A DNA stretch of 25,425 bases, taken from assembly GCA_038213805.1 (NCBI GenBank), contig JBBQSO010000077.1, positions 1-25,425 on the forward strand, read 5' to 3'. Of this stretch, positions 6,001-19,192 are shown in pieces. The stretch comes from Planctomycetota bacterium (GTDB lineage: Bacteria; Planctomycetota; UBA11346). The notes beneath the pieces are model-generated. The model saw only the letters and a list, made by a program, of their open reading frames with translations. It ran no database searches and had not been told where the DNA came from. Made by a program: the position numbers and the translations under genes. Each line of letters begins with the position of its first letter. Within the stretch, counting starts at the first letter, position 1.

Positions 6001-6271
6001 TGCCCGGCGCGACCCACACCACCAGCCAATCGTTTTCCAGGCGCACCAGCTTCCATGCGCGCATGGTGCCCTGCGCGCTGCCGCCGTCGAAGCGCGTGTA
6101 CGGGTAGATGCGACCGAACTGGGCGAGGGGGCTGGGGTCGCCATAGGGATAGGTGAGGAAGGTCTGCTCGACCTCGGTGATGGTCGCATCGGCGGCGGCG
6201 GCACGTGCCGGCATCACGGCCGCGATCAGTGCAGGCAGCAGGAGGGGGATGGGAACCCGTTTGACGAGCAT
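3077..6271 (-). CDS. DUF5107 domain and tetratricopeptide-repeat protein, secreted
   Basis: IYPYTRFD, LENDWL...PGIGGKIWGA.DK, RGPWTSGGIEFNFG, GQKLWLW, YIEIQSG, then Ala/Leu-rich TPR-like helices. Start placed at ATG 6271 ahead of a signal peptide (the ORF is open to 6343). Confidence 0.85.
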   Translation of the reverse strand: MLVKRVPIPLLLPALIAAVMPARAAAADATITEVEQTFLTYPYGDPSPLAQFGRIYPYTRFDGGSAQGTMRAWKLVRLENDWLVVWVAPGIGGKIWGAMDKVSGRDFIYRNPVVKFRDVGLRGPWTSGGIEFNFGTIGHAPSCAAPVDYALARDADGGVRCTVGALDLPSSTRWRVEIRLPRDQAAITTTASWENPTPYHQSCYQWMTAAAEAADDLTMLHPGEHYLEHGGIAHPWPVDAAGRDLSAYRANTFGPDKSYHVLGAATEWFGGYWSGRAGGYAHWSLLGDKPGQKLWLWSQARDGALWRDLLTDAPAPQYIEIQSGLMPSQADENSSATPFKHAALAPGQTLRWSEQWFPLSGIGGLVDASPWGALNIVQVGGHLEIRCCPLRALDAELRVAADGSVFHRQRLKGQPLTVLSADVDLAGHVGTLSVEVGDHLLSWRSDDGERLRLHRPLAADGAADPASAEGLFTAGEEHLRQRDYAPAMESFTSCLAVEPHHLRALARVAELQNRRGEHDQAAATAARALAIDAGDAEANLCWAVANAALGHSADAKDGFGWAERSGDLRAAALAGLAGACIRERELWRAAEYARRGAEDGSDECRFLQAVVARLDHHPDVAAGLVADLLARDPLHAGARSERCLLAGDAQARAAFAAGLRGEDPTQDYLELAARYTSLGCDADAVTLLALAPPGTLTDLWLAWLQRASDPAASDRALDRALAAPVRGVFPAQAVTIAVLRWAQQRRPHWKTGHLLGLLLVSLGRVDEAAALLAAAGDAPDEAAFYLNRAQVRHADGERPALLADLRRALQLAPQDWRAPHALIRALLDGGGDDLAAARATAVDAAQHFPGNQALTLDLALVHLWDDRPREALAALAGLTVLPNEGAYEGRALFRRANLLAAVAALEGGAVAGAEAFIAAARTWPERLGSGRPYDTDERLEDLLAARCRQALGDDAGVRLAYTRIAATTAARHTRSGAALLVSALALRGLDRKEEGAALLRDWPAATPVEEALRAWARARFANDLAAATQALRDPATGQPFPLWRLARSQPDFPLIVAMFRIPAP

Positions 6272-6490
6272 AAGACCAGGATCAGGGAAGAGCGCGACTC
6301 GCCACCAGGGGGGCGGTTGGGGCGGCGTCCTTCCATCCACCATGGATGAGACGGCTTGAGGGCCGGCACGGGCATGCGCGGCGTCGCATGGTGCGCCGTC
6401 GCCAAGACCAGGTGAAGCGTTGCCCGGTACTGCGTCCGGTTAGGGCGCGATCATATCGCTGCGGATACCGATCCTCTCGTTCACGTGCTT

Positions 6491-6673
6491 CTACGCACAC
6501 ACCGGTCCCAGCAGGCGCTTCGACCAATACGTCAACAGATGAGCGCCGACCTGGTTCTGACGGGCGTAGGCGCTACGCGATAAGCCGGACCGGCGCCAAT
6601 CGTCGATTAAGGCTTGGCCACGGATGGCGGGGCTTGATTTCAGGACACGCTTCGCGCTGGTGGGCTGGGTCAT
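6491..6673 (-). pseudogene. tnpA: IS66 accessory protein TnpA, truncated (HTH part only, 60 aa)
   Basis: LIDDWRRSGLSRSAYARQNQVGAHLLTYWSKRL matches the IS66 TnpA HTH pattern; the C-terminal half and tnpB/tnpC are missing; RBS AAGGAGGT precedes it. Confidence 0.8.
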
Positions 6674-6676
6674 ACG

Positions 6677-6720
6677 ACCTCCTTGCGCGCGATTATATGC
6701 AGGCGGATTTCAGCTCGCTA
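6677..6720 (-). promoter_or_regulatory. Putative sigma70 promoter and RBS of tnpA
   Basis: Minus strand: TAGCGA (6720-6715), 17-nt spacer, perfect TATAAT (6697-6692), then AAGGAGGT (6684-6677). The -35 match is weak. Confidence 0.55.
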
Positions 6721-6796
6721 GTACACGTGCCTGGACGCATACCATTCTCGAGTCGGACGCCGAGACGTGATCCCCCGTAGCTCGCATCGCTCCGCG

Positions 6797-9700
6797 TCAG
6801 GGATCGACCGCGATCCGCTGTCCCGGTTGCCACACGGTCAGCTCCGGTTGGTAATAGGGATACGCTGAGGACGGCCTGCCTTGGCTGGTGCCGGCAGCGA
6901 TGGCGACGCAGGTGATCGGGATGTCCCACGTCGCGCCGACCGCCAGGCGTTCGCCATAGAGTCGGACTTCGCCATCGGCCCACTCCCAGCAGCCAAGCTG
7001 GCCGGCGCGGACGAGGCGGTCGAGGGCCTCGGCGCGCGGCTCCAGCCCGGCGGGCAGGCCGACGATCAGCATCGGGGCGTAGACCTCCGCATGCGCCTGC
7101 ACGTGCGCCAGCACCGTGCACGGCGCGCCCACGGCCACGTGGGCGGGAGCGGTGATGGTCAACGACATGGGTGCGTTGGCAGCGTCGGTGGGCTGGGCCA
7201 GCCGACCGTCGAGTCGCCAGCGCCAAGCCGGGGCGGGCCCCGCGATAACGACCTCCAGTGGTCCACCGACGGGATCGATGGCCAGTGGCCGTTGCAGCAT
7301 CTCCTGCATGTGCACCGGAATGGCGAGCCGCGCGAGCTCCTGGCCATCGCGGCGGATGATCACCGTGGATGGGGCCGGCCGCGTCTCGTGGTCCTCGGCG
7401 GCGGCGAACGCCTCGATGGCCAGCACATCGCTCTGGGTCGTGTTCCACGCCTCGCCATGACGCTGGGCGCCGAGCCAGGCGAGGCCGCGCCGCGCGTCGT
7501 CCACGCGTCCATCGGCAAAGTAGGCGAGCACTGCCAGGGCGGTGGCCTCGACGTCTGCTACCGGCCGCCACGGCGAGGCCCCCGGGCGGATGGCGGCGCC
7601 GTCCTGATCGAGTCGGATCATGCTGGCCAGGGCGGCAGCCTGGTCAGCGTCCCCGGCCTCGCGGGCGAGACGCGCTGCCAGGCCGAGCGCGTACGCGTCG
7701 CCCGCAAGGCGGGCCGCGGCATAGGCGCGTCCCCGGTCGGCGGGCGGACAGTCGGAGCCGAGGTCGGCCGCGATCTGCACGTCGCTCATGCCGGGGGCGG
7801 TGTTCAGGACTCCGGAGTGGAAGCCGCCGTCCGTGCGGCGCTGCGCCAGCAGCCAGGCCTGCTGACGGTCGAGGAGCGGCCGGTTGACCGCGACCACCGC
7901 CCCGAGGCGCTTGAGCTGGCGCAGTCCGAAGGCCGTAAGGACCGGATCGCCAGGATCGCGGCCGAAGAGCGAGAACCCACCCGAGGGGCAGGCGAAACCC
8001 TGCAGCAGGGCGACAGCTTGGGTGAGGAACGTCGCGGCTCCGCCATCGTCCTGCTGGCGTCTGCGCCGACGCTCGCAGGACACCAGCAGCGGGTAGCTGC
8101 TGGAGGAGGTCTGCTCGAAGCACCCATGCGGCTCGTGCAGGAAATGCCGGTGGACGGCATCGAGCAGATCCTCGAAGCCGCTCTCGACAACAAGGCTGCC
8201 GTGCAGCGTTCCGGGCAGGAAGCCCTGCGCAGGGGGCAGCTCCAGGCGCGCTGAGCCGTGGCGTTGGCCGCCGTCGTGCCACGGCGCACCCGGTGCCTCG
8301 ACGACGATCCCACCCGCGAGCGTGTCGGTGCCAAGTGACGACGCGGCGTGGAGGCGCACCCGCGCGCTGCCGGTCGCCACGGCCACGATCTCGAGGCGGC
8401 CGTCATGGACGATGGCGCGGATGGCTTCGCCCTCGACCGCTACTTCGCTCGCGTCCGCTCCGCGCAGATTGACGGGTGCATCCCAACGGTCGCCCACCGT
8501 CAGGCGCGACGGCAGCCGCACCGCCAGTTCGACCGGCTGGCGGACCTCAAGGGTCGTTGCGGCGGCAGTGAATCCGCCCCGGGCATCGAAGGCGTCGGCG
8601 CGCAGCGTCAGGCGACGGCCGCGCGGCAGCGCGGGCAAGGTCAGTACCAGCCGGCCGGCCGCGCCGCTGGGTTCGGCCGCCCACCACGCCACCGTCGCGT
8701 GATTCGGCAGCCCCTCATCGCTGAGACCGGGGGCCATGACGGTGCGGCGGTCGGCGAGGGCTGAGGAGGCGGCCCCGGACCCTTCGACCTGGGTATAGCG
8801 GTAGTAGATTTCGAGATCGAGCGTGGTGATGGCGGTGCTCAGCAGCCGTCCCCACCGTGTTCCGGTAGCCCCGTAGATCGATGGGTCCCAGGATCCGGCA
8901 TCCGGCAGGTCGGTACGCTGCAGGTTCACCAACACATCGCGCATCGTCGCGTTCCAGGTGAGCCACTTAGCGCCACCCCGTTGGAAGCAGGCCAGGGTAC
9001 CCCAGTAGACGTGGAGCGGATCGAAGGGCGGCGCCAGAGGCGGCTGATCCAGCACTCGGTTGGTGAGGGTATCCAACTGCTGACTGCCGGCATGATGGCC
9101 GAGCATCACTGCCATCCAGGCACCGGCCGCAGCACGGTCGGGAGCGTGGGCCTGGTGTGTGGCCGCATCGTAGACGGCGGGAAAGGTCGAGCGGCCGACC
9201 ATCGGGTCGAGGCGTTGCCAATCCGGATTCGCTGCCTGCCAAGCCGTAGTGAAATAGCTTTTTGCCCGGTTGAGGCTGTCGCGGACGTTCAAGCCGCTGG
9301 CCAACGCGCTCTTCAGCGCCATGACGCACCAGGTGGACGCGACCGCGTCCAGGTGATCGTCCTCTGCCCGGCCCGAAGCGGCCCATCCGCCGATGGCGTG
9401 CTGCTGTTTGAGGAGCGCGTCGATGGCCATCTGCGTCGGTTGACGCAAGGTCGGGTCGGCGGTCATGCCATACGCCTCGGCGAGAGCGGTCACCACGCCG
9501 GCCTGAACCTCGGGATCAGGATCGCAGCGGCCATCAGCCCCGATCTGTCCGACCAGCCAGGTGACCGCGCCCAGCACCATCGCCTTATACCGGCTCGGCG
9601 TCCGGTGATCGTAGCCGGCGCCGAGGTAGGCGAGGGTGGCAAGTGCAGTGCATGAGCGATCGGCGGATGCATCGGTCCAGGTGCCGATCCCATCCGCCTT

Positions 9701-11548
9701 GTCATCCAGGGTGGACTGCAGTGGCCAAGCGGCCGCGCTCCAATGGCCATCCGCGGATTGGTGCCGTTGGAGGAATCTGCTGTCGGCGACGACCGCGGTC
9801 TCGCTGGCGCGGGTGCCGCCGTTGCGGATCACTGCGCGTCGGCGCCCACCGCCGGTGCGGTATCCGAAGGACCCGCTAGAACCACCGGCTCCGATGGCCA
9901 TGAACGCTCCTCCTTGGCCGACCTCGGCGAAGGTGTCCAGGGCGCCGGCCGGGGTGGACAGGGCGGGCGCGAGCTGGAACGGCAGAGCGGGGACCGGCAG
10001 GACGCCCAGCCGGCGCAGCCGGGGTGACGCTGCCGGGCTGCCCCTGCGCCAACCCTGGACGCCGAGGAGGAGATCGAGGCGCTCCGCCGCGCCGGCTCCG
10101 TCCTGGAGATAGGAATCGGCATCAGCCAATTCCTCGACCTCCCCATTGAGCCAGGCCAGCGCCGGCAGGCGCGCTGGCCGCTCCCGGGCCTCGATCAGGT
10201 CCTCATCGCCGGCATCCACGACGCTGAGCGAGCACACCCCGGCGAGGGGCGCCCCCGCCGCGTCGGCGAGGCGCAGTTCGACATCGGCAGGGGCGCCCAG
10301 TGGAATAGTCGGCGGCGCGGTCACGGTCAGGGTGATGCGTCGTGCCGGCCGCAGGAACAGGGTGCGCTGGATGCTCGCCGTGCCGTCCGGAGTGGTGAGC
10401 ACGGCGTCGATCACGCCCGCCACGCCAGCGGTGAGGGGCACCTCCACCGGGGTGACGATGCCCGCGGTCAGCGCGCAGGGGTGGTCGGCCACGACGGTGT
10501 TCCGCCGGACCAGCCGCAGCCGCCAAGTGCCGGTGACAGTGGATTGGATCCGCAGATGCACGGGTCCATCCGCCGCCTGCACCGCCGAACCAAGGATGAC
10601 GGCGCCGGTCGCCTGCACGGCGGGAAGGGTGAACTCCTGCCGCGCGGGTTGCTCGACCACGAGGTGGTAGTCCATGCCGACGGCGGGCGTGAATGCGACG
10701 CAGCACCGGCCCTCGTGACGGGTGGCGAATGCAGCCAGGGCGTTTCCCGCGCCATCGCGGAGCGTTCCGCGGCAATCCGCCGGTTGGCCATCCTGGGAGC
10801 GCGACTGGAGGTAGACCATCGCGGGCAGCCCACCCACGAGCACACCGCCGTCGATCGTCGCCTGCAGGTCGAGGTGCGCAGACGCCAGGGGCAGGCTGCG
10901 GCTGGCCACGACCGCGGTGCCGGCATCGGGAATGCTGGCGGTGACCGTGCCATCGCGCTGGGCGAGATCGGCCGGGATGGGCACCTGGATGCTAGCCCGG
11001 CCCTCGGCATCGCTCACGACGCGCACCTCGCGTGCCGCGCCGCCGCCCAGCGCAACGCGCAGGATCGCCGGCCGATTCGCGAGAGGCGTCCCATCGCGCC
11101 CACGCAGGGCGACGCGCACCTCGGCGGTCTCGCCAGGCACGTAGCCGCGGCGATCGAAGGTGAGTTCGGCGGCGACGCGGCCTTCCAGGCCCTCGACGGT
11201 GCGGGCGATGAGGACGCGCCGCGGCTCGGCGGCGACGCGATCGCCGATCGCGGCGGACACCAGGAAGCTTCCGCCCGCGTCCGCGGGCTTCCAGGTGGTG
11301 GCGGCGACGCTGTCTTCGACGCGGGCCATTCCGCTCCAGACCACGTGATCCCGGCCATCACGAACTTGGAAGCAGACCAATGAGGCGGTGGCGACCGGGG
11401 CGCGGGTCAGCGCGTCGAGCAGGATGGCGCGGAGGCAGACCTCCTCGCCGGGCCGGTACCACGGTCGCTCGCTGGTCACGATCAGGGTCGGCCGCGCCTC
11501 ATCAGCCATCGCCAGCGAGGCGATGAGGAACGCCAGCAGAGTACGCAT
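6797..11548 (-). CDS. Alpha-2-macroglobulin-like thioester protein with an inserted prenyltransferase/squalene-cyclase-repeat domain
   Basis: Signal peptide; MG domains (SERPWYRPGEEV, FDRRGYVPGETAEV, SLSVVD, LDLLLGVQGWRR, LPSRLTVGD); thioester motif PHGCFEQTSS (CFEQ at 8111-8122); TED features (GGFSLFG, LTAFGL, VEATALAVLA, TTQSDVLA); C-terminal GLPAGLEP...AYPYYQPE. Confidence 0.85.
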   Translation of the reverse strand: MRTLLAFLIASLAMADEARPTLIVTSERPWYRPGEEVCLRAILLDALTRAPVATASLVCFQVRDGRDHVVWSGMARVEDSVAATTWKPADAGGSFLVSAAIGDRVAAEPRRVLIARTVEGLEGRVAAELTFDRRGYVPGETAEVRVALRGRDGTPLANRPAILRVALGGGAAREVRVVSDAEGRASIQVPIPADLAQRDGTVTASIPDAGTAVVASRSLPLASAHLDLQATIDGGVLVGGLPAMVYLQSRSQDGQPADCRGTLRDGAGNALAAFATRHEGRCCVAFTPAVGMDYHLVVEQPARQEFTLPAVQATGAVILGSAVQAADGPVHLRIQSTVTGTWRLRLVRRNTVVADHPCALTAGIVTPVEVPLTAGVAGVIDAVLTTPDGTASIQRTLFLRPARRITLTVTAPPTIPLGAPADVELRLADAAGAPLAGVCSLSVVDAGDEDLIEARERPARLPALAWLNGEVEELADADSYLQDGAGAAERLDLLLGVQGWRRGSPAASPRLRRLGVLPVPALPFQLAPALSTPAGALDTFAEVGQGGAFMAIGAGGSSGSFGYRTGGGRRRAVIRNGGTRASETAVVADSRFLQRHQSADGHWSAAAWPLQSTLDDKADGIGTWTDASADRSCTALATLAYLGAGYDHRTPSRYKAMVLGAVTWLVGQIGADGRCDPDPEVQAGVVTALAEAYGMTADPTLRQPTQMAIDALLKQQHAIGGWAASGRAEDDHLDAVASTWCVMALKSALASGLNVRDSLNRAKSYFTTAWQAANPDWQRLDPMVGRSTFPAVYDAATHQAHAPDRAAAGAWMAVMLGHHAGSQQLDTLTNRVLDQPPLAPPFDPLHVYWGTLACFQRGGAKWLTWNATMRDVLVNLQRTDLPDAGSWDPSIYGATGTRWGRLLSTAITTLDLEIYYRYTQVEGSGAASSALADRRTVMAPGLSDEGLPNHATVAWWAAEPSGAAGRLVLTLPALPRGRRLTLRADAFDARGGFTAAATTLEVRQPVELAVRLPSRLTVGDRWDAPVNLRGADASEVAVEGEAIRAIVHDGRLEIVAVATGSARVRLHAASSLGTDTLAGGIVVEAPGAPWHDGGQRHGSARLELPPAQGFLPGTLHGSLVVESGFEDLLDAVHRHFLHEPHGCFEQTSSSSYPLLVSCERRRRRQQDDGGAATFLTQAVALLQGFACPSGGFSLFGRDPGDPVLTAFGLRQLKRLGAVVAVNRPLLDRQQAWLLAQRRTDGGFHSGVLNTAPGMSDVQIAADLGSDCPPADRGRAYAAARLAGDAYALGLAARLAREAGDADQAAALASMIRLDQDGAAIRPGASPWRPVADVEATALAVLAYFADGRVDDARRGLAWLGAQRHGEAWNTTQSDVLAIEAFAAAEDHETRPAPSTVIIRRDGQELARLAIPVHMQEMLQRPLAIDPVGGPLEVVIAGPAPAWRWRLDGRLAQPTDAANAPMSLTITAPAHVAVGAPCTVLAHVQAHAEVYAPMLIVGLPAGLEPRAEALDRLVRAGQLGCWEWADGEVRLYGERLAVGATWDIPITCVAIAAGTSQGRPSSAYPYYQPELTVWQPGQRIAVDP

Positions 11549-11769
11549 GTCAGGTGAACGATCCTGGCTGGCCCGGGTTCATTCGCAACCCGAGGACATG
11601 CCGGCCGCCATCGGAAAGGTCCTGGTGCGAATGCTCTCAGGCGGCTGAGGGATCATAAGAGCCAGGGTTTCGCGATTTTTCACCCAGCTTGTGAGGAGCT
11701 GGCAACGTCCACGCCGCCAACCACCAGGGCCGGCAGGAATGCGTCGGTCTCGCCACGCTCGCGGCGCTG

Positions 11770-12921
11770 TCAGCAGGATCCGGACCCCGGAGCGCAGCAC
11801 GACCCGCCAGACCGATAGTCCACCGGAAGCTCGCCGTTCTTGGTCTCGCGCGGGTGCCGCGCACGATGTCCATCGCAGGCGAACGGCTGTTGTGCGGAAT
11901 CTGCGATGGCCTGGTAGGGCGGCAGGCCGATCACCTGCGCGGCATACGGGACGCTCGTCAGCAGGCGGTAGGTCTTGGCGCATACCGCCGTCCGCTCGCC
12001 CCGACGGAAGACGTGCCCATCGTCATCGTGCACTTCACTCCACGGACCGGGGTAGAGGATCGCATGGTTGCCTTCCTGGCACGGCCCCTGCTTACCCTTG
12101 TAGGCGACGACGGTGACGGCGCGGTACTCGATGCCCTCGACGACCTGCCAGGGGCGTTCATCGCGTTTCGCCAGACTGACGCCGTGGAAACCAGCCTCGA
12201 CGAAGGCTTGCAGGAAACGGTCCTCGCGAAAGGCGCCGCTGATGCACCCGGACCACAGGGTCGGATCGTTGCGCTGATGCTCGGGGACGTCCTCGTCGCT
12301 GACGATGTCGGAGATGGCCACGCGACCGCCCACTTTGGTGACCCGGAACAATTCGCTGAAGAGCTGGTGCCGCTCGCGTTCGTTGACCAGGTTCAGCACG
12401 CAGTTGGACACCACCACGTCGATCGAGGCGTCGGGAATGAGCGGTTGCTCGTGACGCAGTCGTTCCTGCTCGGCCTGCAGGTCGAAGAGCCCTTCCCGGG
12501 ATCGCACCGGGTGTTCAGCCAACCAGCGATCGACCGCCTCCAGGTCCAGCGCCAGATCCTGGATCTGCGCACAGCGGAACTCGGTATTCGCGAAGCCGAC
12601 CGTGCGCGCCACCTGCGGCGCGGCGAGGCGGGCCAGCGCCAGCATCTCCCGATTGCGGTCGACGCCGATCACGCGGCCCCCGGCACCTACCACCTGGCTG
12701 GCGATGAAGCAGATCTTGCCCCCGCCCGAACCGAGATCGAGGACGGTCTCACCGGGCCTGACGAAGCGACTCGGGTCGCCACAGCCGTAGTCCCGCTCAA
12801 GGACCACCGAAGGAATGGCGGCCAGGAACTGCGGGTCGTAGGTGACCGGACAGCACAGTGCGGGTTCGACGGCTCGTGCGGCGGCGCCGTAACGGTCTTG
12901 GACGGCCTGGGTCTGGTCCAT
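11770..12921 (-). CDS. arsM: ArsM/AS3MT-like arsenite S-adenosylmethionine methyltransferase
   Basis: LCCP, YGCGDP, VLDLGSGGG, VVVSNCVLNL and WSGCISGA give the conserved As-binding cysteines of the ArsM/AS3MT family; Cys-rich tail SCCAPGSGSC; clustered with arsS. Confidence 0.8.
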   Translation of the reverse strand: MDQTQAVQDRYGAAARAVEPALCCPVTYDPQFLAAIPSVVLERDYGCGDPSRFVRPGETVLDLGSGGGKICFIASQVVGAGGRVIGVDRNREMLALARLAAPQVARTVGFANTEFRCAQIQDLALDLEAVDRWLAEHPVRSREGLFDLQAEQERLRHEQPLIPDASIDVVVSNCVLNLVNERERHQLFSELFRVTKVGGRVAISDIVSDEDVPEHQRNDPTLWSGCISGAFREDRFLQAFVEAGFHGVSLAKRDERPWQVVEGIEYRAVTVVAYKGKQGPCQEGNHAILYPGPWSEVHDDDGHVFRRGERTAVCAKTYRLLTSVPYAAQVIGLPPYQAIADSAQQPFACDGHRARHPRETKNGELPVDYRSGGSCCAPGSGSC

Positions 12922-13375
12922 GGTCGCATCTCCCGGAAGACAGTGAGTCAGACGACGGGCACCGTCCGCTGGAGGCCGGTGAGTGTCCAGTCATTCTGCC
13001 GGCCGGGCCGGTGTCTGGTCCCCAATGCCCGCCCACTCCAACGGCAGCGGCCCCTCAAGCGAGCAGATGGTTTCGTGCTCCCCGCGTCGCGGGGTCCTTA
13101 TTCACGCGGGCATCGCCTGCGAGTCCGGCTGTGCGCTCGCCGCACGGCTGGACCTGCGGCAGGAATAGACCCGTGGTGCACCAGATCCACCCAGATCAAC
13201 GCATCCTGGAGCAGCGCCACGCGTACTTGAAAATCGTCGGGAAGCCCTCATGCAATGGCCTATTCCCAAGCCAGGGTTGCAGGGCGCGGGAGGAGGATGG
13301 CGTATCAGACCGTCGCCGTCATCGGCAGGTTGGGTCAAACCTGCGGACCATCAGCAACGTCACCCAGGTGAGATC

Positions 13376-15667
13376 ATGAACAAGCGCGTCGTCAAATGGC
13401 TGGTGATCGGGACGGTGCTGGGCGCCCTGATCCTGTTCTTCGCCTTGCATGGGCTGTCCTTCCTGTCCTTCGCGAACCTCAAGAACGAGCAGGCGGCGCT
13501 GCAGGACGGCTACCACCACCGTCCACTGCTGTTCGTCGGCGCCTTCGCCGGCGCCTACGTCATCGCGGCCGCCCTGTCGTTGCCGGGGGCCGCGCTCTTC
13601 ACCTTGGCCGCCGGTGCGATCTTCGGTGTCGCCGCCGGCACGGCGGTGGCGCTGGGCGCGAGCACCATTGGCGCCAGCCTGGCGTTTCTGAGCGCGCGCT
13701 ACGCGCTGCGCGACACCATTGAAGGCTCCTTCCGCACCCGTCTCGAGGCCATCAACCGCGGTCTGGACCGTGATGGCGTCTTTTATCTGATCACCCTGCG
13801 CTTGATCGCGGTGATCCCGTTCTTCGTGGTCAATCTGGCGATGGGGGTGACGCGCATCCGTCTGATCACCTTCTTCCTCGGCAGCCTGGTCGGGATGCTG
13901 CCGGGTGCCCTGGTGTTCGCCAACGCGGGAACGCGCCTGGGTGCCCTGAAATCGCCGGGCGATATCCTGTCCCTGCCCGTGCTGGCCGCGTTCGCGGCGC
14001 TGGCCGTGCTGCCCTGGGCCGCCAAGGGCGCGCTCGGCTGGTGGCGGTGGCGCCGGACCACCGGTCGCTTCCCCGCGCCAGCGCGTTTCGATTTCGATCT
14101 GACGGTGATCGGCGCGGGAGCAGCCGGCCTCACCGCGGCCGCGGTCGCAGCCCAACTGGGCGCCAAGGTCATGCTGATCGAGCGCCAGCGCATGGGCGGT
14201 GAGTGCCTGAACACCGGCTGCGTGCCGTCGAAGGCCCTGCTGCGCGAAGCGCATGTCCTTGCCGAGGCCCGCAGGCATGCCGCAGGTGATCCCACCGTGC
14301 CGGTTCCGGCAGCGGATCTTCCCGCGGCCATGGCCAGGGTGCGGGCGGCGATCGCCAGGCTCGAACCCCACGATTCGCGGGCGCGCTTCCAGGGCATGGG
14401 CGTGACGTGCGCGAGCGGCGAAGCGCGCCTGGTCAGCCCCTACGCGGTCGCGGTCGCCGGAGCGACGGTCACCTCGCGGGCCATCCTGATCGCGACCGGG
14501 GGCAGTCCACGCCTGCCCGACGTGCCCGGATTCGCCGACATCGGGGCCCTGACCACGGAGACCGTCTGGGGCCTGCGCAGCCTGCCGCGGCGGCTGGTGA
14601 TCATCGGCGGTGGTCCGGTGGGATGCGAACTCGGCCAGTGCTTCGCGCGCTTCGGCAGCCAGGTGACGATCATCACCGCGCCCTACCAGCTGCTCGAACA
14701 CGAAGACCTCGACGTGGCGACCATCCTTGCCGACCGCCTGCGCGATGACGGGATCCGGCTGGTCCTTGGCGAGCGCCTGGTGCGCTGCGCGCGTCAGGAC
14801 GCCGACAAGATCGTGGTGAGCCTGGGCGAGAACGGCCAGAGCCACCATGCGTGCGATGAGGTCCTGATCGCGCTCGGCAAGCGGCCGGACACCGCGGCCC
14901 TCGGCCTCGCCGAACTCGGGATCGCCATCGCCACGGATGGGCGCATCGAGACCGACGAATTCCTGCGCACCAATTTCCCCAACATCGTCGCTTGTGGGGA
15001 CGTCTCCTCAAAGCTGCTCTTCACCCACGTCGCCAGCGATCAGGCGTGGCGCGCGACGGCGAATGTGCTGCTGGCGCCGTTCTCGCACCAGCGCCCCGAA
15101 GCCAAGGCGGTGCCGTGGATCACCTTCACCGAGCCCGAGGTCGGACGCGTCGGGGTGTCCGAGGGCGAGGCCACCACGCGCGGCATCCCCGTCGAGGTGA
15201 CGCGCTACGATCTCGCGGAGAACGACCGCGCCGTGATCGACGGGCGGACGGGCATGCTCAAGGTCATCACCGCGCGCGGCACGGACAAGATCCTTGGTGC
15301 GGCGGTGGTCGGCCCGGGCGCTGCGGAGCTGATCGGCGAACTCACCGGCGCGATCGCCCGGGGCGTGGGCTTGAAGACCCTGGCGACCGACATGCATGCC
15401 TACCCGACCTACGGTGACGCCGTGGCGCGCGTGGCGGCTGCCTGGCGGCGGACGCATACGCCGGCGTGGCAGCTCAGGGCTCTCGCCCGTTATCTGGCCC
15501 TGCGCCGCGCACCGGCGCGCTGGCGCCTGTGTCTGGGTCTCGCCGGCGTGGTTGTGGTGGTCGTGGCCGCGGGCGCGTGGTTGGGCGTCTCAACGCTGCT
15601 CTCTCGTCACGTGGCGACATCGGCAGTCGTCGAGGACGCGCAGCCGCCCGTCCCTGGCGATCGCTGA
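13376..15667 (+). CDS. DedA/TVP38 (SNARE-associated) membrane domain fused to a class I pyridine nucleotide-disulfide oxidoreductase
   Basis: LSLPGA, LRLIAVIPFFVVN, GMLPG (DedA); VIGAGAAG, GGECLNTGCVPSK, ATGGSP, IIGGGPVGCE, ACGDV, HAYPTYGD. Start at ATG 13376 (MNKRVV). No MerA C-terminal Cys-Cys pair. Confidence 0.9.
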   Translation: MNKRVVKWLVIGTVLGALILFFALHGLSFLSFANLKNEQAALQDGYHHRPLLFVGAFAGAYVIAAALSLPGAALFTLAAGAIFGVAAGTAVALGASTIGASLAFLSARYALRDTIEGSFRTRLEAINRGLDRDGVFYLITLRLIAVIPFFVVNLAMGVTRIRLITFFLGSLVGMLPGALVFANAGTRLGALKSPGDILSLPVLAAFAALAVLPWAAKGALGWWRWRRTTGRFPAPARFDFDLTVIGAGAAGLTAAAVAAQLGAKVMLIERQRMGGECLNTGCVPSKALLREAHVLAEARRHAAGDPTVPVPAADLPAAMARVRAAIARLEPHDSRARFQGMGVTCASGEARLVSPYAVAVAGATVTSRAILIATGGSPRLPDVPGFADIGALTTETVWGLRSLPRRLVIIGGGPVGCELGQCFARFGSQVTIITAPYQLLEHEDLDVATILADRLRDDGIRLVLGERLVRCARQDADKIVVSLGENGQSHHACDEVLIALGKRPDTAALGLAELGIAIATDGRIETDEFLRTNFPNIVACGDVSSKLLFTHVASDQAWRATANVLLAPFSHQRPEAKAVPWITFTEPEVGRVGVSEGEATTRGIPVEVTRYDLAENDRAVIDGRTGMLKVITARGTDKILGAAVVGPGAAELIGELTGAIARGVGLKTLATDMHAYPTYGDAVARVAAAWRRTHTPAWQLRALARYLALRRAPARWRLCLGLAGVVVVVVAAGAWLGVSTLLSRHVATSAVVEDAQPPVPGDR

Positions 15668-15668
15668 A

Positions 15669-17009
15669 ATGCCGCACGCAGGCGGCGACGGGTTCCCACA
15701 CACGCCGGCCGGTGAGCCGATCGTGGTGGTGCTGGCGCGCGCCCCAGAGCTGGGCCTGGTCAAGTCGCGCCTTGCCCGCGACGTTGGCGCCGCCGCGGCG
15801 CTGGACGTCTACCGCACGCTGCTCGCGTGCACCGCCCGCGCCGTGCGCGCCTGGCAGGGGCACGCCGTGGTGCATTTTTCCGGGTCGCAGGCCGCGCTCG
15901 CCGGCAGCCCGCTCGGCTGGCTGCCGCGCCTGCCCCAGGTCGACGGCTCGTTGGCGCGGCGACTGGAATCCGCTCTGGCGTCGGCGCTGACCGGTGGCTG
16001 CACCGCCGTCGCCATCGGCAGCGATTGCCCGGGGCTGCGCGCCCGGCATCTGCACGAGCTGGTCGCACTCGCGGGCGCGCACCGGGTCGCGTTCGGACCG
16101 GCTGCGGATGGCGGCTATTGGGGCATCGCCGTACGCGACCGCGAAGCGCTGGCGATCTGCTGCGCCGAGGACCTGCCCTGGTCGCAGCCGACGCTGTTGC
16201 ACGCGGTGCTGGCCAGGCTCGCCGCCCACGGCGTCCGCGCCGGCCTCGGAGCCACGCTCGGTGACGTCGATGATGCGGAGGATGCGCGCCGCGCGCGTCT
16301 GACAGGCGCACTGCCACCAGCGGCCCCGCTGCTGACGGTGGTGGTGCCGGTGCGGGATGACGCACTCGCGCTGCAGGGTTGCCTCGACGGTCTGCGCCGC
16401 TGCGCGGGGGCGGCAGAAGTCATCGTCGTGGACGGCGGCAGCAGCGACCAGTCCCGGGCGATCGCCGTGCAGCACGCGCTGCAGCCGCGGGTGCTCAGTG
16501 CGCGTGGCGGTCGGGACCGCCAGCTGGCGGCGGCCTTCGCGGCGGCGCGCGGCGACTACGTGCTGTGCCTGCCGGCCGATGCCCGTCTACCCGGCGGTGC
16601 AATCCAGGCGCTGACTGCGTGGCTGGCTGTAGTGCGGCCGCGCGCCGGCTGCCTGCGCCGGCACGCAGCCGCACGCGCACCGCTGCACCGCTGGCTGGAC
16701 GCCTGGGCCCGCCTGCGCGCGGCGTGGACCGGTGGCGCCTACATGGATCAGGGTCCGTTCTTCCTGCGCGCCGCCGCGCTGCGCTGCGGCGTTCCCGCTG
16801 CCGGCCCCTATGACACCGCAGAGCTGGGCAGGCGCCTCGCCGGGCCCGGCCGCTTCACCATCGCACCGGTGCCCATGGCGGTCTCGTGCCGGGCCTACGC
16901 GGGGGGCAGGACGGCAGCGGTCACCCTGCGCCATCAGCGCCTGCGCCTGCGCCACCACCTGCGCACGTGCTTCTCTCAAGCGGTTTCCCATGGCGGGCGG
17001 GCCCCATGA
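15669..17009 (+). CDS. Fused TIGR04282 (DUF2064) and TIGR04283 (GT2) arsenosugar-associated transferases
   Basis: N half: ARAPELGLVKSRL, IGSDCP, GPAADGGYWGI, PWS, DVDDAED. C half: VVVPVRDD, VIVVDGGSSD, GRDRQL, YMDQGPF. ATG lies 1 nt after the upstream stop. Confidence 0.85.
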   Translation: MPHAGGDGFPHTPAGEPIVVVLARAPELGLVKSRLARDVGAAAALDVYRTLLACTARAVRAWQGHAVVHFSGSQAALAGSPLGWLPRLPQVDGSLARRLESALASALTGGCTAVAIGSDCPGLRARHLHELVALAGAHRVAFGPAADGGYWGIAVRDREALAICCAEDLPWSQPTLLHAVLARLAAHGVRAGLGATLGDVDDAEDARRARLTGALPPAAPLLTVVVPVRDDALALQGCLDGLRRCAGAAEVIVVDGGSSDQSRAIAVQHALQPRVLSARGGRDRQLAAAFAAARGDYVLCLPADARLPGGAIQALTAWLAVVRPRAGCLRRHAAARAPLHRWLDAWARLRAAWTGGAYMDQGPFFLRAAALRCGVPAAGPYDTAELGRRLAGPGRFTIAPVPMAVSCRAYAGGRTAAVTLRHQRLRLRHHLRTCFSQAVSHGGRAP

Positions 17010-18130
17010 CGCTCGCCGGCGCGTCCGCGACCCGCATCGTGCTGCTTGGGGCTGGGCACGCGCACCACCACGCGCTGGCCCACCTGGAGGAGTACGCGCG
17101 CAGTGGATGCGTGGTGACCCTGGTCGCCGAAAGCCCCTTCTGGTACTCGGGCATGGCATCTGGGATCCTCGGTGGCCATTACGCGCCGGAGGAGGCCCAG
17201 ATCGATGTCTTCGGCCTGGCGGCTCGCGGTGGCGCGACGGTCGTCGCGGGCCAGGCCGCGTTCATAGACCGGCCAGGGCGCCTGGTGGTCCTGGAGGATG
17301 GCAGGACGATTCCCTATGACGTCGTATCGCTGGCCATCGGCAGTGGCGTCCGCACCGATGTGGCGCTGCCCGGACCAGAGAGCGCCTTCACCGTCAAGCC
17401 GCTCGTGAGGCTCTGGGAGCTGCGCTGCGCGCTCGAACGGTTGGTGCGGGAACGTGCGCTGGCGCCGGTCACGGTCGTGGTCATCGGCGGTGGGGCGAGC
17501 GCCTGCGAAGCCGCCGCGAACGCGCACGCGCTCATCACCGCTCGCGGCGGGCGCGCGCAGATCGTCCAGGTCACCGGCGCGGCCTGGCTGGCGGCGTTCC
17601 CGGCGCGCGTCCGCACGCAGGTCGCGCAGGATTTCGCGCGGCGCGGCATCCGGGTGGAACCGGCGCGGGCGCTTGGCTGCACTGCGCAGGGCGTCGCGCT
17701 CGTCGACCGGCCCGTGATCCCCTGCGATGCCGTGGTGATCGCCACGGGACTGGAGCCACCGCCGCTCGCGGCCGCCAGCGGGCTGCCCGTCGATGGCGAG
17801 GGGGCACTGCTGGTCGACGCCCACCTGCGCGCGCTGGGCGATGCGCGGATCTTCGGTGGGGGTGACTGCATCGCCATCGCCGGCCACGCCGTGCCGCGAC
17901 TGGGGGTCTTCGCCGTGCGCCAGGGGCCGGTGCTGCACGCGAATCTCATCGCCACGGCGCGCGGCGCGCAGCTGCGCACCTTCCGACCCCAGCGCCGCTG
18001 GTTGTCGATCCTGAACCTGGGCGCCCGCCGCGGCCTGGCGACGTGGGGTCCGTTCAGCTGGTATGGGCGCGGAGCGTGGCTGCTGAAGGACCGCATCGAC
18101 CGCGCCTTCGTCCGCCGCTATCAGCGCTGA
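17006..18130 (+). CDS. FAD-dependent NDH-2-like oxidoreductase (TIGR03169, SelD N-terminal-like), stand-alone
   Basis: LLGAGHAH, YSGM.SG.LGG.Y, YDVVSLAIGS, VKP, VIGGGASACE, IFGGGDC, GVFAVRQGPVL..NL, PQRRWLSILNLG, LKDRIDRAFV; ATGA overlap with the upstream gene. Confidence 0.88.
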   Translation: MTLAGASATRIVLLGAGHAHHHALAHLEEYARSGCVVTLVAESPFWYSGMASGILGGHYAPEEAQIDVFGLAARGGATVVAGQAAFIDRPGRLVVLEDGRTIPYDVVSLAIGSGVRTDVALPGPESAFTVKPLVRLWELRCALERLVRERALAPVTVVVIGGGASACEAAANAHALITARGGRAQIVQVTGAAWLAAFPARVRTQVAQDFARRGIRVEPARALGCTAQGVALVDRPVIPCDAVVIATGLEPPPLAAASGLPVDGEGALLVDAHLRALGDARIFGGGDCIAIAGHAVPRLGVFAVRQGPVLHANLIATARGAQLRTFRPQRRWLSILNLGARRGLATWGPFSWYGRGAWLLKDRIDRAFVRRYQR

Positions 18131-18148
18131 GCGCGGGCGGCGGACGCC

Positions 18149-19192
18149 TCAGGCGACGGTAGCCCCGCCGCATCCCGAGCCCTGACCAGCCGTGCAGCCC
18201 AGGCAGTGCGTCGCGGTGGCGATCGCCCGACCATCCATCAGCGCCTGGTCGTAGGCGAAGATGGTGCGGCTCGCCGTCGGGGCCACCGGCAGCTCAAGCA
18301 TCTGGTTGAAATCGCAATCGTACAAGGCCCCGTCCCAACCGACCGAAAGGGTGTTCCGGCACATCAGCCCCGCGAGCGCCGCGGGGTTGAAGGCCGCGCT
18401 GAGTTTCGCCAGGTAGGCGCGGTAGTTGCCCGACGCGATGAGATATTCCAGGAAGCGGCTGATCGGCATGTTGGTCAAGCCGATGAGGTCGTTGAAGACC
18501 ACCCCGTGGCGGCGCGCGAGCAGGTCGCGCGTGCGCCGCTCGGCCCCCGCCTGCGCAGGTGGCAGGAAGGCACCGGTGGGATTGCTCATCAGGGTCAGGC
18601 GCAGTCCGCTGTCCGCATGGCCGTACCCCAGGTCATTCAGCAGGCGCAGCCCCCGGATCGAGCGCGCAAAGACCCCGTCGCCGCGCTGCGTGTCGGTCTG
18701 GCCCGCATCGACCGCCGGCAAGGAGGCGACGATGTGCACGCGCTGCTGCGCGAGGAACGCCCCGAGCCCATCCTGCCCGCCAAGCAGCAGCACCGTGAGG
18801 TTGCAGCGATCGATGATCTCCGGCACGCCGCGTTCGCGCAGGGCGAGGACGAAACGGCGGAAGTGCGGATTGAGCTCGGGAGCCCCGCCGGTGAGGTCGA
18901 CGATCGGCGGGCGCAGGCGGGTGGCGACATCCAGGCATGCCTGGAAGGTCGGCCACGCCATGTTCTGGACGGTCTGGTGCGGTCCGGCATCGACGTGGCA
19001 GTGCCGGCAGCGCTGGTTGCAGAGCTTACCGACGTTGATCTGCAGGACCGTGGTCGGGCCCGCGACCAGGGCCGGCTGGGCATGCCTCGCCAAGTGCTCG
19101 GCGAAAGGCGGCACCCCCGCATCACCGAGCAGGCGGAGCTGCTGGGCGGGCGCGAGCGGTCCAGCGGGTGGAGGCGCCATCGGACCGCTCAC
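18149..19192 (-). CDS. arsS: Arsenosugar biosynthesis radical SAM protein ArsS (TIGR04167, rSAM/Cys-rich)
   Basis: LQINVGKLCNQRCRHCHVDAGP, DLTGGAPE, DRCNLT, TNMPISRF, LMCRNTLSVGWDG.LYDCDFNQML, HCLGCTAGQGSGCGG; GTG start overlaps the upstream stop (GTGA). Confidence 0.93.
   Translation of the reverse strand: MSGPMAPPPAGPLAPAQQLRLLGDAGVPPFAEHLARHAQPALVAGPTTVLQINVGKLCNQRCRHCHVDAGPHQTVQNMAWPTFQACLDVATRLRPPIVDLTGGAPELNPHFRRFVLALRERGVPEIIDRCNLTVLLLGGQDGLGAFLAQQRVHIVASLPAVDAGQTDTQRGDGVFARSIRGLRLLNDLGYGHADSGLRLTLMSNPTGAFLPPAQAGAERRTRDLLARRHGVVFNDLIGLTNMPISRFLEYLIASGNYRAYLAKLSAAFNPAALAGLMCRNTLSVGWDGALYDCDFNQMLELPVAPTASRTIFAYDQALMDGRAIATATHCLGCTAGQGSGCGGATVA

Follow-up and report, generated by a model that had tools for sequence, protein, structure and literature searches.

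Members of the alpha-2-macroglobulin (A2M) family are sprung by an event in a single loop, and the animal versions of that loop hold either an unfolded bait, as in A2M and TEP, or a folded, releasable domain, as in complement C3, C4 and C5, where the anaphylatoxin (ANA) domain occupies the bait position (accessible text of PMC9156758). Here we describe P0001, a bacterial protein of A2M type whose bait loop contains a different folded domain. P0001 is encoded on the minus strand of a 25,425-nucleotide stretch of DNA from a Planctomycetota bacterium (contig JBBQSO010000077.1 of assembly GCA_038213805.1), which we call the window, as a single uninterrupted open reading frame (ORF) of 1583 codons at 6797-11548. 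An earlier reading of the DNA letters (the original prediction) had proposed a chimeric thioester protein with two alpha/alpha barrels, and this proved correct: P0001 has its own thioester domain (TED), recognised by Pfam, and a second, inserted toroid, seen in an AlphaFold2 model. From sequence comparisons it is near certain that the bait loop of P0001 has been expanded by a mobile planctomycete module. The parts of the gene, with amino acid (aa) positions and the evidence for each, are as follows, MG standing for macroglobulin and pLDDT for the predicted local distance difference test.

6797..11548, minus strand: whole gene, stop codon included, of the 1583-aa, predicted exported A2M-family thioester protein P0001 (ORF list and translation; Pfam; family profile)
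11504..11548, minus strand: predicted Sec signal peptide, aa 1-15 (MRTLLAFLIASLAMA), without a lipobox cysteine (read from the sequence)
10043..11503, minus strand: N-terminal MG domains, aa 16-502, ending at the pre-bait anchor LDLLLGVQGWRR (Pfam MG2 at aa 129-194; anchor kept in 42 relatives)
9875..10042, minus strand: pre-linker, aa 503-558 (56 aa), rich in Pro, Ala, Leu and Arg, predicted to be disordered, a candidate protease-accessible bait (pLDDT below 50)
9782..9874, minus strand: Gly/Arg-rich leader of the module, aa 559-589 (GSFGYRTGGGRRRAVIRNGGTRASETAV...) (conservation in orthologues; modelled helices)
8783..9781, minus strand: terpene-cyclase-like (alpha/alpha)6 toroid, aa 590-922, in which QW-like motifs are present and DxDD is absent
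8699..8782, minus strand: post-linker, aa 923-950 (28 aa), modelled with low confidence and variable, a second candidate bait (pLDDT; identity to orthologues)
8207..8698, minus strand: post-bait MG7/CUB region, aa 951-1114, beginning at the TVAWW anchor, boundaries approximate (anchor alignment to human A2M)
7349..8206, minus strand: TED, aa ~1115-1400, with GCFEQ at aa 1142-1146, window 8111-8125 (Pfam TED_complement; alignment to CD109)
6800..7348, minus strand: C-terminal CUB/MG8-type region, aa 1401-1583 (bMG10 match under its cut-off; coverage by the family profile)

Set beside the complement proteins, P0001 is alike in carrying a folded helical domain in the LNK/bait insert of MG6, upstream of MG7, CUB, TED and MG8, with a basic site at the N-terminal edge of the inserted domain, a CxEQ thioester downstream and a profile match to C3 at E 6e-94. 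It differs in that its insert is an (alpha/alpha)6 toroid of ~340 aa and not the small ANA domain, whose fold it does not have, in that its host is a bacterium, in that no Pfam match follows the MG8-type end, and in that release of the inserted domain is, in P0001, a candidate feature. With human A2M, A2ML1, insect TEP1, CD109, ECAM/YfhM and SaA2M it has in common MG domains, a CxEQ TED and a bait between MG6 and MG7, but those protease-trapping proteins have an unfolded bait whereas the loop of P0001 holds a folded toroid and its leader, and unlike ECAM P0001 has a plain predicted signal peptide and no lipoprotein anchor. As C3, C4 and C5 already have a folded domain where the bait would be, the principle is not new. 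The arrangement had been predicted to be undescribed, and this stands for the architecture itself, since a terpene-cyclase-fold toroid acquired repeatedly at the bait position of bacterial A2Ms was not described in the literature searched, which took in few subscription journals; it does not stand for the idea of a folded bait domain, for which the ANA domain is the precedent (accessible text of PMC9156758). A preprint on the CAGE complex, from the literature searched, was unrelated.

That P0001 is an exported, thioester-bearing protein of the A2M type is near certain, as judged from its domains. Its orthologues share the same kind of N-terminal start as the predicted signal peptide. Pfam MG2 matches aa 129-194 with 39.9 bits against a cut-off of 32.8 (44.2 bits when the N-terminal part is scanned alone), TED_complement scores 44.6 bits against a cut-off of 22, and the alignment of the TED to CD109 spans aa 1135-1385. 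The GC.EQ motif is found in 70 of 71 relatives, the single exception being truncated by the end of its contig. At the C-terminus bMG10 reaches 17 bits, under its cut-off of 26.2, and the match of the family profile to solved A2Ms extends to profile position 1488 of 1502, which covers the C-terminal region. An NCBIfam scan of the whole protein returned 0 families. Among solved structures, the family profile matched human A2M (6tav_A) at 7e-125, A2ML1 (7q1y_A) at 5e-115, CD109 (8s3o_A) at 1e-109 and TEP1 (2pn5_A) at 5e-106, with C3 at the E-value given above, E. coli ECAM at 1e-55 and Salmonella SaA2M at 2e-51. The planctomycete A2M subfamily as a whole is far nearer to animal A2M, A2ML1, CD109, TEP1 and C3 than to the enterobacterial ECAM and SaA2M.

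The position of the insert was read from an alignment of aa 400-1583 of P0001 with 41 relatives. Its 42 rows share two anchors conserved in the subfamily, ...DLLLG.QGWRR and ...T[LV].W..., which enclose a stretch of variable length; in P0001 this stretch, from GWRR to TVAWW, is 449 aa long and comprises the 56-aa disordered linker, the Gly/Arg leader, the toroid and the 28-aa linker. In profile alignments the second anchor pairs with VRKYFPETWIWD of human A2M, the MG7 start TVAWW of P0001 being aligned to FPETWIW, and the VvDeAVl stretch upstream of the first anchor pairs with human LRAVDQSVL. In P0105, a distant relative, the module (aa 963-1286) is preceded by Pfam A2M_BRD (aa 757-883) and directly followed by Pfam A2M (PF00207, aa 1325-1415). 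From the anchors, the alignments to human A2M and the Pfam layout of P0105 it follows that the insert lies in the LNK/bait insert of MG6, as that element is defined in the accessible text of PMC9156758. The placement of the toroid at the bait position, which had been proposed for window positions 8790-9910 (aa 547-920, within the ORF and on the same strand), is thus borne out, and all the peptides that had been quoted for it are present: LDLLLGVQGWRR (aa 491-502), GSFGYRTGGGRRR (aa 559-571), FLQRHQSADGHW (aa 592-603), LLKQQHAIGGW (aa 712-722), LVNLQRTDLPDAGSW (aa 873-887), LDLEIYYRY (aa 910-918), TVAWW (aa 952-956), LPSRLTVGD (aa 1012-1020) and GCFEQ at the place listed. Two accompanying ideas have to be given up. 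Bait regions had been taken to be normally short, but in this subfamily the distance from anchor to anchor is 130-392 aa in the 35 module-less relatives, against 381-452 aa in the seven module-bearing rows (P0001 included). Nor does a folded module simply replace the bait, as the disordered linker before the module and the poorly modelled one after it remain.

Two side observations concern the scaffold relatives. Five without the module (P0137, P0150, P0157, P0159 and P0167) have strongly hydrophobic, membrane-helix-like stretches within the bait region. Many, among them P0138, P0145, P0160 and P0173, have an N-terminal zinc finger of the anti-sigma type, with PF13490 listed for four and N-termini resembling LLDYLYDLLE...C..C in about twenty; from their sequences these zinc-finger-headed proteins look like membrane-anchored fusions of an anti-sigma factor with an A2M.

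The insert was modelled with AlphaFold2 on its own (aa 503-953, 48-row alignment), and it folds as a separate barrel, with a mean pLDDT of 85 and a predicted template modelling score (pTM) of 0.82. From aa ~563 to 922 the model is all-helical and mostly above 90, whereas aa 503-557 fall below 50 and, past residue 420 of the segment, block means lie at ~34-60. The fold is that of an (alpha/alpha)6 toroid of the class II terpene cyclase type; of the prenyltransferase-repeat barrel originally predicted, the alpha/alpha barrel was right and the prenyltransferase was not, the fold being nearer to the class II terpene cyclases. Three QW-like motifs, for which we take Q....G.W as the definition, lie at aa 592-603, 712-722 and 873-887, and their key residues are nearly invariant (Q597, G601 and W603 in 48/48 rows, W722 in 46/46, Q877 in 47/48 and W887 in 46/48). 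After a conserved GGW the family consensus reads G/S-D-T-S-V with one Asp, D734, present in 37/48 rows, and the columns before it are mostly gaps. We presume that D734 stands where the cyclases have DxDD; at this site the 48-row family alignment contains no DxDD or DxD general-acid motif, which on the same presumed mapping sets the toroid apart from squalene-hopene cyclase, MstE and drimenyl diphosphate synthase. The reading of the toroid as an active terpene cyclase was rejected because DxDD is absent. It also differs from class II terpene cyclases in being a single, predicted exported domain on a Gly-rich tether that reaches no Pfam cut-off: in a Pfam scan of the insert alone only Pec_lyase appeared, at E 0.033 and below its cut-off. 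Conserved polar residues of the module include R564, E583, H648, E691, D734, R901 and E913. The inserted barrel has no CxEQ thioester motif, and an origin of the insert as a recent duplicate of the protein's own TED was rejected. Weak matches of the module model to the TEDs of nine relatives fit the fold class that TED and toroid share, as described in the accessible part of PMC12414744.

The Gly/Arg-rich stretch in front of the toroid is, on the evidence of conservation and of the model, part of the module and not a spacer. It is the segment best conserved against the orthologues (67-70% identity, with barrel and TED at 53-56%), its residues R564 (45/47 rows), G577/G578 (43/47) and E583 (44/48) are kept across the family, it recurs in other carriers of the module, and from about aa 563/R564 on it is modelled as ordered helices packed on the barrel. 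The GGGRRR sequence, which had been thought a free linker, is accordingly no such thing in the model. The flanking linkers are somewhat less conserved, with identities to the orthologues P0002-4 of 44-48% for the pre-linker, slightly under those of the domains, and 25-42% for the post-linker. The leader is absent from two module-bearing A2M lineages, P0111 and P0175.

The reading that we prefer, tentatively and with a probability of about 0.42, is that P0001 is a cleavage-triggered thioester trap in which the toroid serves as a non-catalytic binding head. Cleavage by a protease in either flexible linker (aa 503-562 or 923-950) would be followed by a rearrangement of the MG body, after which the GCFEQ thioester would react with the attacking protease. 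The toroid would be a head of the sort found on TonB-like anchors and on VIT-vWA and PD40 proteins of the phylum, and would position or aim the bait, either by holding a trap that has no anchor of its own at a partner in the envelope or by recruiting particular targets. A binding head without cyclase chemistry is suggested because an equivalent of DxDD is missing and a single Asp is kept in 37/48 rows. A retained function is suggested because P0001 keeps nearly all of the family-conserved residues of the module and because, among orthologues, the module is conserved to the same degree as the scaffold.

The comparison with complement raises another scenario, in which cleavage on both sides of the toroid, or at the Arg-rich leader, frees it for a signalling, binding or enzymatic role, its departure unlocking the thioester as that of C3a does. 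A folded domain at the same place, two flexible linkers and RRR at the N-terminal edge would all suit such a scheme, but in the model an ordered helix begins with the RRR, and the toroid is some four times (~4x) the size of an anaphylatoxin and of a different fold. In most carriers, moreover, the module is a permanent terminal head (121/143, see below), and altogether we regard release as improbable.

Modules inside an A2M are rare. They occur in 5 of 68 scaffold relatives (P0001 included), the other 63 being without the insert, a point that the original prediction had proposed to check; in 3 of 80 metagenome A2M loci; and in 5 of the best 150 cluster representatives. All trees were quick or FastTree builds. 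In a scaffold tree of the MG7-CUB-TED region (71 rows) eight module-bearers fall in three places, and constraining them to a single clade costs 82 log-likelihood units (approximately unbiased (AU) test, p 0.0016). Without the long-branched P0105 the cost is 38.5 units with an AU p of 0.07, so that a third origin, that of P0014, is not established; the nearest genome relatives of P0014 have no module. In the tree of the module itself, forcing nine A2M-borne modules together costs 137 units (AU p 9e-6), and a 120-row FastTree covering every carrier type divides the 11 A2M-borne modules between two clades whose other members are exclusively VIT-vWA-borne (15 VIT and 9 A2M in one, 6 VIT and 2 A2M in the other, both with 99% local support), while 53 TonB-like and 27 other modules lie outside both. 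A single origin of the A2M-borne toroid can thus be rejected and the recurrence of the architecture is near certain on these phylogenies: from the scaffold and module trees together, the module moved into the bait loop of A2Ms on two or more occasions, and its source was always the VIT-vWA-associated subtype. For the binding-head trap, the rejection of a single origin on both trees and the clades otherwise exclusive to VIT-vWA carriers point to selection for the bait site.

Could the toroid instead be a tolerated passenger, doing its usual job uncoupled from the trap in the only A2M site that accepts a large insertion? The baits of 130-392 aa in the 35 module-less relatives, some with hydrophobic stretches, speak for such tolerance, as does the high mobility of the module, which is nearly universal in the phylum (matches at E <= 1e-10 in 334 of the 401 genomes sampled). 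On the other side, the arrangement has been retained through divergence to 31-57% identity, and each of its two or more origins drew on the VIT-vWA-associated subtype rather than on the TonB-like or PD40 subtypes, which are far commoner. We consider this explanation unlikely, while taking it seriously.

Elsewhere the module occurs without any A2M, which the original prediction had likewise proposed to check, in VIT-vWA, PD40 and TonB-like carriers. Among the 150 genome matches listed, only the window's own spans A2M flanks. A search with the insert region of P0001 matched 108 proteins, among which a hand count of the Pfam column gave 21 VIT-vWA and 35 PD40 carriers, the module standing at the end of both kinds of protein. 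A search with aa 440-1120 as a 681-aa query against 1.84 billion cluster representatives returned 4691 at E <= 1e-10, a figure to which the flanks of the query also contribute, since they match scaffolds too, and atlas clusters score 0.94 for the module under the annotation prenyltransferase/squalene oxidase repeat-containing. Such planctomycete repeat proteins have the same module and the same leader as P0001 but carry them as a terminal head, whereas in P0001 the module is internal to the A2M loop. Layouts were counted in 143 new module-bearing representatives drawn from the cluster search: the module is C-terminal in 121 of them, 95 are shorter than 700 aa, and in 122 the match starts at or before model position 25 (~aa 567 of P0001). 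Among the 71 that are 480-700 aa long, 60 have an N-terminal membrane helix, and in these 60 we found S...H in 50, W..S...H in 41 and a Pro-rich next stretch in 33. The commonest carrier therefore looks, from its sequence, like a TonB-like membrane anchor with a toroid head. The TolA/TonB layout with its SHLS motor-binding motif is described in the accessible part of PMC12204202, which does not mention toroid heads, and no published description of toroid-headed anchors was found in the literature searched. P0001 itself has no TonB/TolA layout, beginning as it does with a signal peptide and MG domains.

The window's genome contains at least four paralogous modules, 42-43% identical to the insert, three of them in tandem genes and one on another contig. 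The tandem genes follow rpsA at 6103-11715 of locus L119 (G000:C63), and each has a TonB-like helix (GW.IS...H), a linker, the Gly leader and a toroid, so that the TonB-like layout is found in the genome's own paralogues (GWPISAAVH on contig C63). No ExbB/ExbD gene adjoins them; upstream, on the opposite strand, is a MoxR-type AAA gene. Outside the A2Ms, the insert is most closely related to modules of VIT-vWA proteins (38-43% identity), in which the scaffold differs from that of P0001 and the module is C-terminal; animal ITIH heavy chains are distant relatives of their VIT-vWA part. The only VIT protein of the window's genome, a 759-aa frame, has no toroid.

These carriers bear on the idea that the leader and toroid are an integrated decoy, a bait copying the exposed heads of the bacterium's own TonB-like arms or VIT-vWA proteins, so that an agent attacking such heads springs the trap. 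The leader, the best-conserved part, is common to TonB-like and VIT-vWA carriers, and the genome's paralogous toroids are 42-43% identical to the insert, three of them on TonB-like proteins. A2M- and VIT-vWA-borne modules form exclusive clades, and both proteins have animal homologues that are cleavage-activated protease inhibitors, the VIT-vWA protein ITIH4 becoming one on cleavage (accessible part of PMC7793589). That A2M and VIT-vWA proteins are two large carriers of one toroid subtype is, by this analogy, a suggestive but indirect link. Yet no protease is known to cut the leader or toroid, the leader is modelled as ordered from R564 on and would be less accessible, P0111 and P0175 do without it, and the A2M-borne modules are nearer to those of VIT-vWA proteins than to those of the TonB-like arms that would be copied. 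A decoy of this kind is in our view rather unlikely. A broader version, in which leader and toroid form a portable trigger or bait cassette for cleavage-activated traps, placed in the bait loop of A2Ms and after the vWA domain of VIT-vWA proteins and mimicking TonB-like heads, we consider distinctly unlikely. Were it true, the trap would be sprung by whatever engages or cuts the heads (a competitor's protease, a toxin or a phage protein) and not by any protease, and bacteria would have in it their own equivalent of the decoys integrated into plant immune receptors, or of the C3a switch of complement.

Several observations also weigh against the toroid as a non-catalytic binding head on a cleavage-triggered trap. 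The toroid may have a catalytic role of another kind, conserved polar residues being present. Conservation in the linkers is just a little lower than in the domains, whereas some A2Ms have hypervariable baits, and P0111 and P0175, with no Gly leader, show that the arrangement can do without one. Support for P0014 as a third origin falls short of significance (AU p 0.07) and P0105 is a long branch, and, as the bait loop of the subfamily is long and variable anyway (130-392 aa), tolerance of insertions may explain part of the recurrence. Lastly, comparison of the window with the loci L023 and L035 revealed no conserved gene neighborhood pointing to a partner.

That a bacterial lineage has, at least twice, filled the loop that springs animal A2Ms and complement proteins with another folded domain, and a much larger one, suggests that the bait loop is an evolvable slot which sets what the trap responds to. 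The architecture also offers a way into the function of a very large and unstudied family of planctomycete domains, in which one shared head links three classes of envelope protein (A2M, VIT-vWA and TonB-like arms). Because the read-out of an A2M is simple, consisting of a conformational shift and a thioester adduct, P0001 could serve as an assay for what the toroid recognises.

An assembly error, against which the original prediction had cautioned, is unlikely. Window positions 8300-10500 are spanned by one contig in each of two sequencing runs, the two contigs showing 0 and 1 differences from the window and no joint where the insert begins or ends; as both runs may be the source of this DNA, they do not count as independent of it. 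Independent support comes from other assemblies, in which the layout is shared by P0002-4 (55-57% identity), L008/P0109 (78-81%, with a late frameshift), P0111, P0175 and P0192. The assembly is of metagenome type, in 180 contigs, and its high GC content gives many spurious ORFs, which is what might lead one to suspect that a misassembly or a fused gene call has joined an A2M gene to a toroid gene; given the one unbroken frame, the absence of a joint in the contigs of both runs and the layout shared with orthologues elsewhere, such an artefact is exceedingly improbable. The orthologue at L008 4321-11157 (78-81% identical) comes from a long-read metagenome-assembled genome and has 2278 codons; its frame shifts near ...PMLIVGLPAG, the true C-terminus being lost, which is probably a sequencing error. 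No RNA run was listed among the sequencing runs with this sequence.

In the loci of the orthologues, the neighbors in L023 and L035 are unrelated genes, except for one VIT-vWA-toroid gene in L023, which lies 5 kb downstream of the gene for P0003 on the same strand. Between these two genes, also on that strand, L023 7523-11482 holds two ORFs, 705 and 594 aa long, neither of which matches a Pfam family. In the window, the gene downstream of that for P0001 (3077-6343, same strand) encodes a protein of 1088 aa in which DUF5107 (E 3e-109) precedes TPR repeats and which showed no association with the A2M gene in relatives, and at 1-1611 there is an IS66-family transposase gene that runs past the window's left end (DDE_Tnp_IS66, E 2e-72). 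On its other side the A2M gene adjoins an arsenosugar-type biosynthesis cluster (11770-19192). This comprises a methyltransferase resembling ArsM (332.8 bits, short of its cut-off of 500), a fusion of a VTT/DedA domain with an FAD disulfide oxidoreductase, a glycosyltransferase that combines TIGR04282 and TIGR04283 (neither match reaching its cut-off), a TIGR03169 oxidoreductase (247.8 bits, short of 310) and the radical SAM protein ArsS (TIGR04167), with 379.9 bits against a cut-off of 300.

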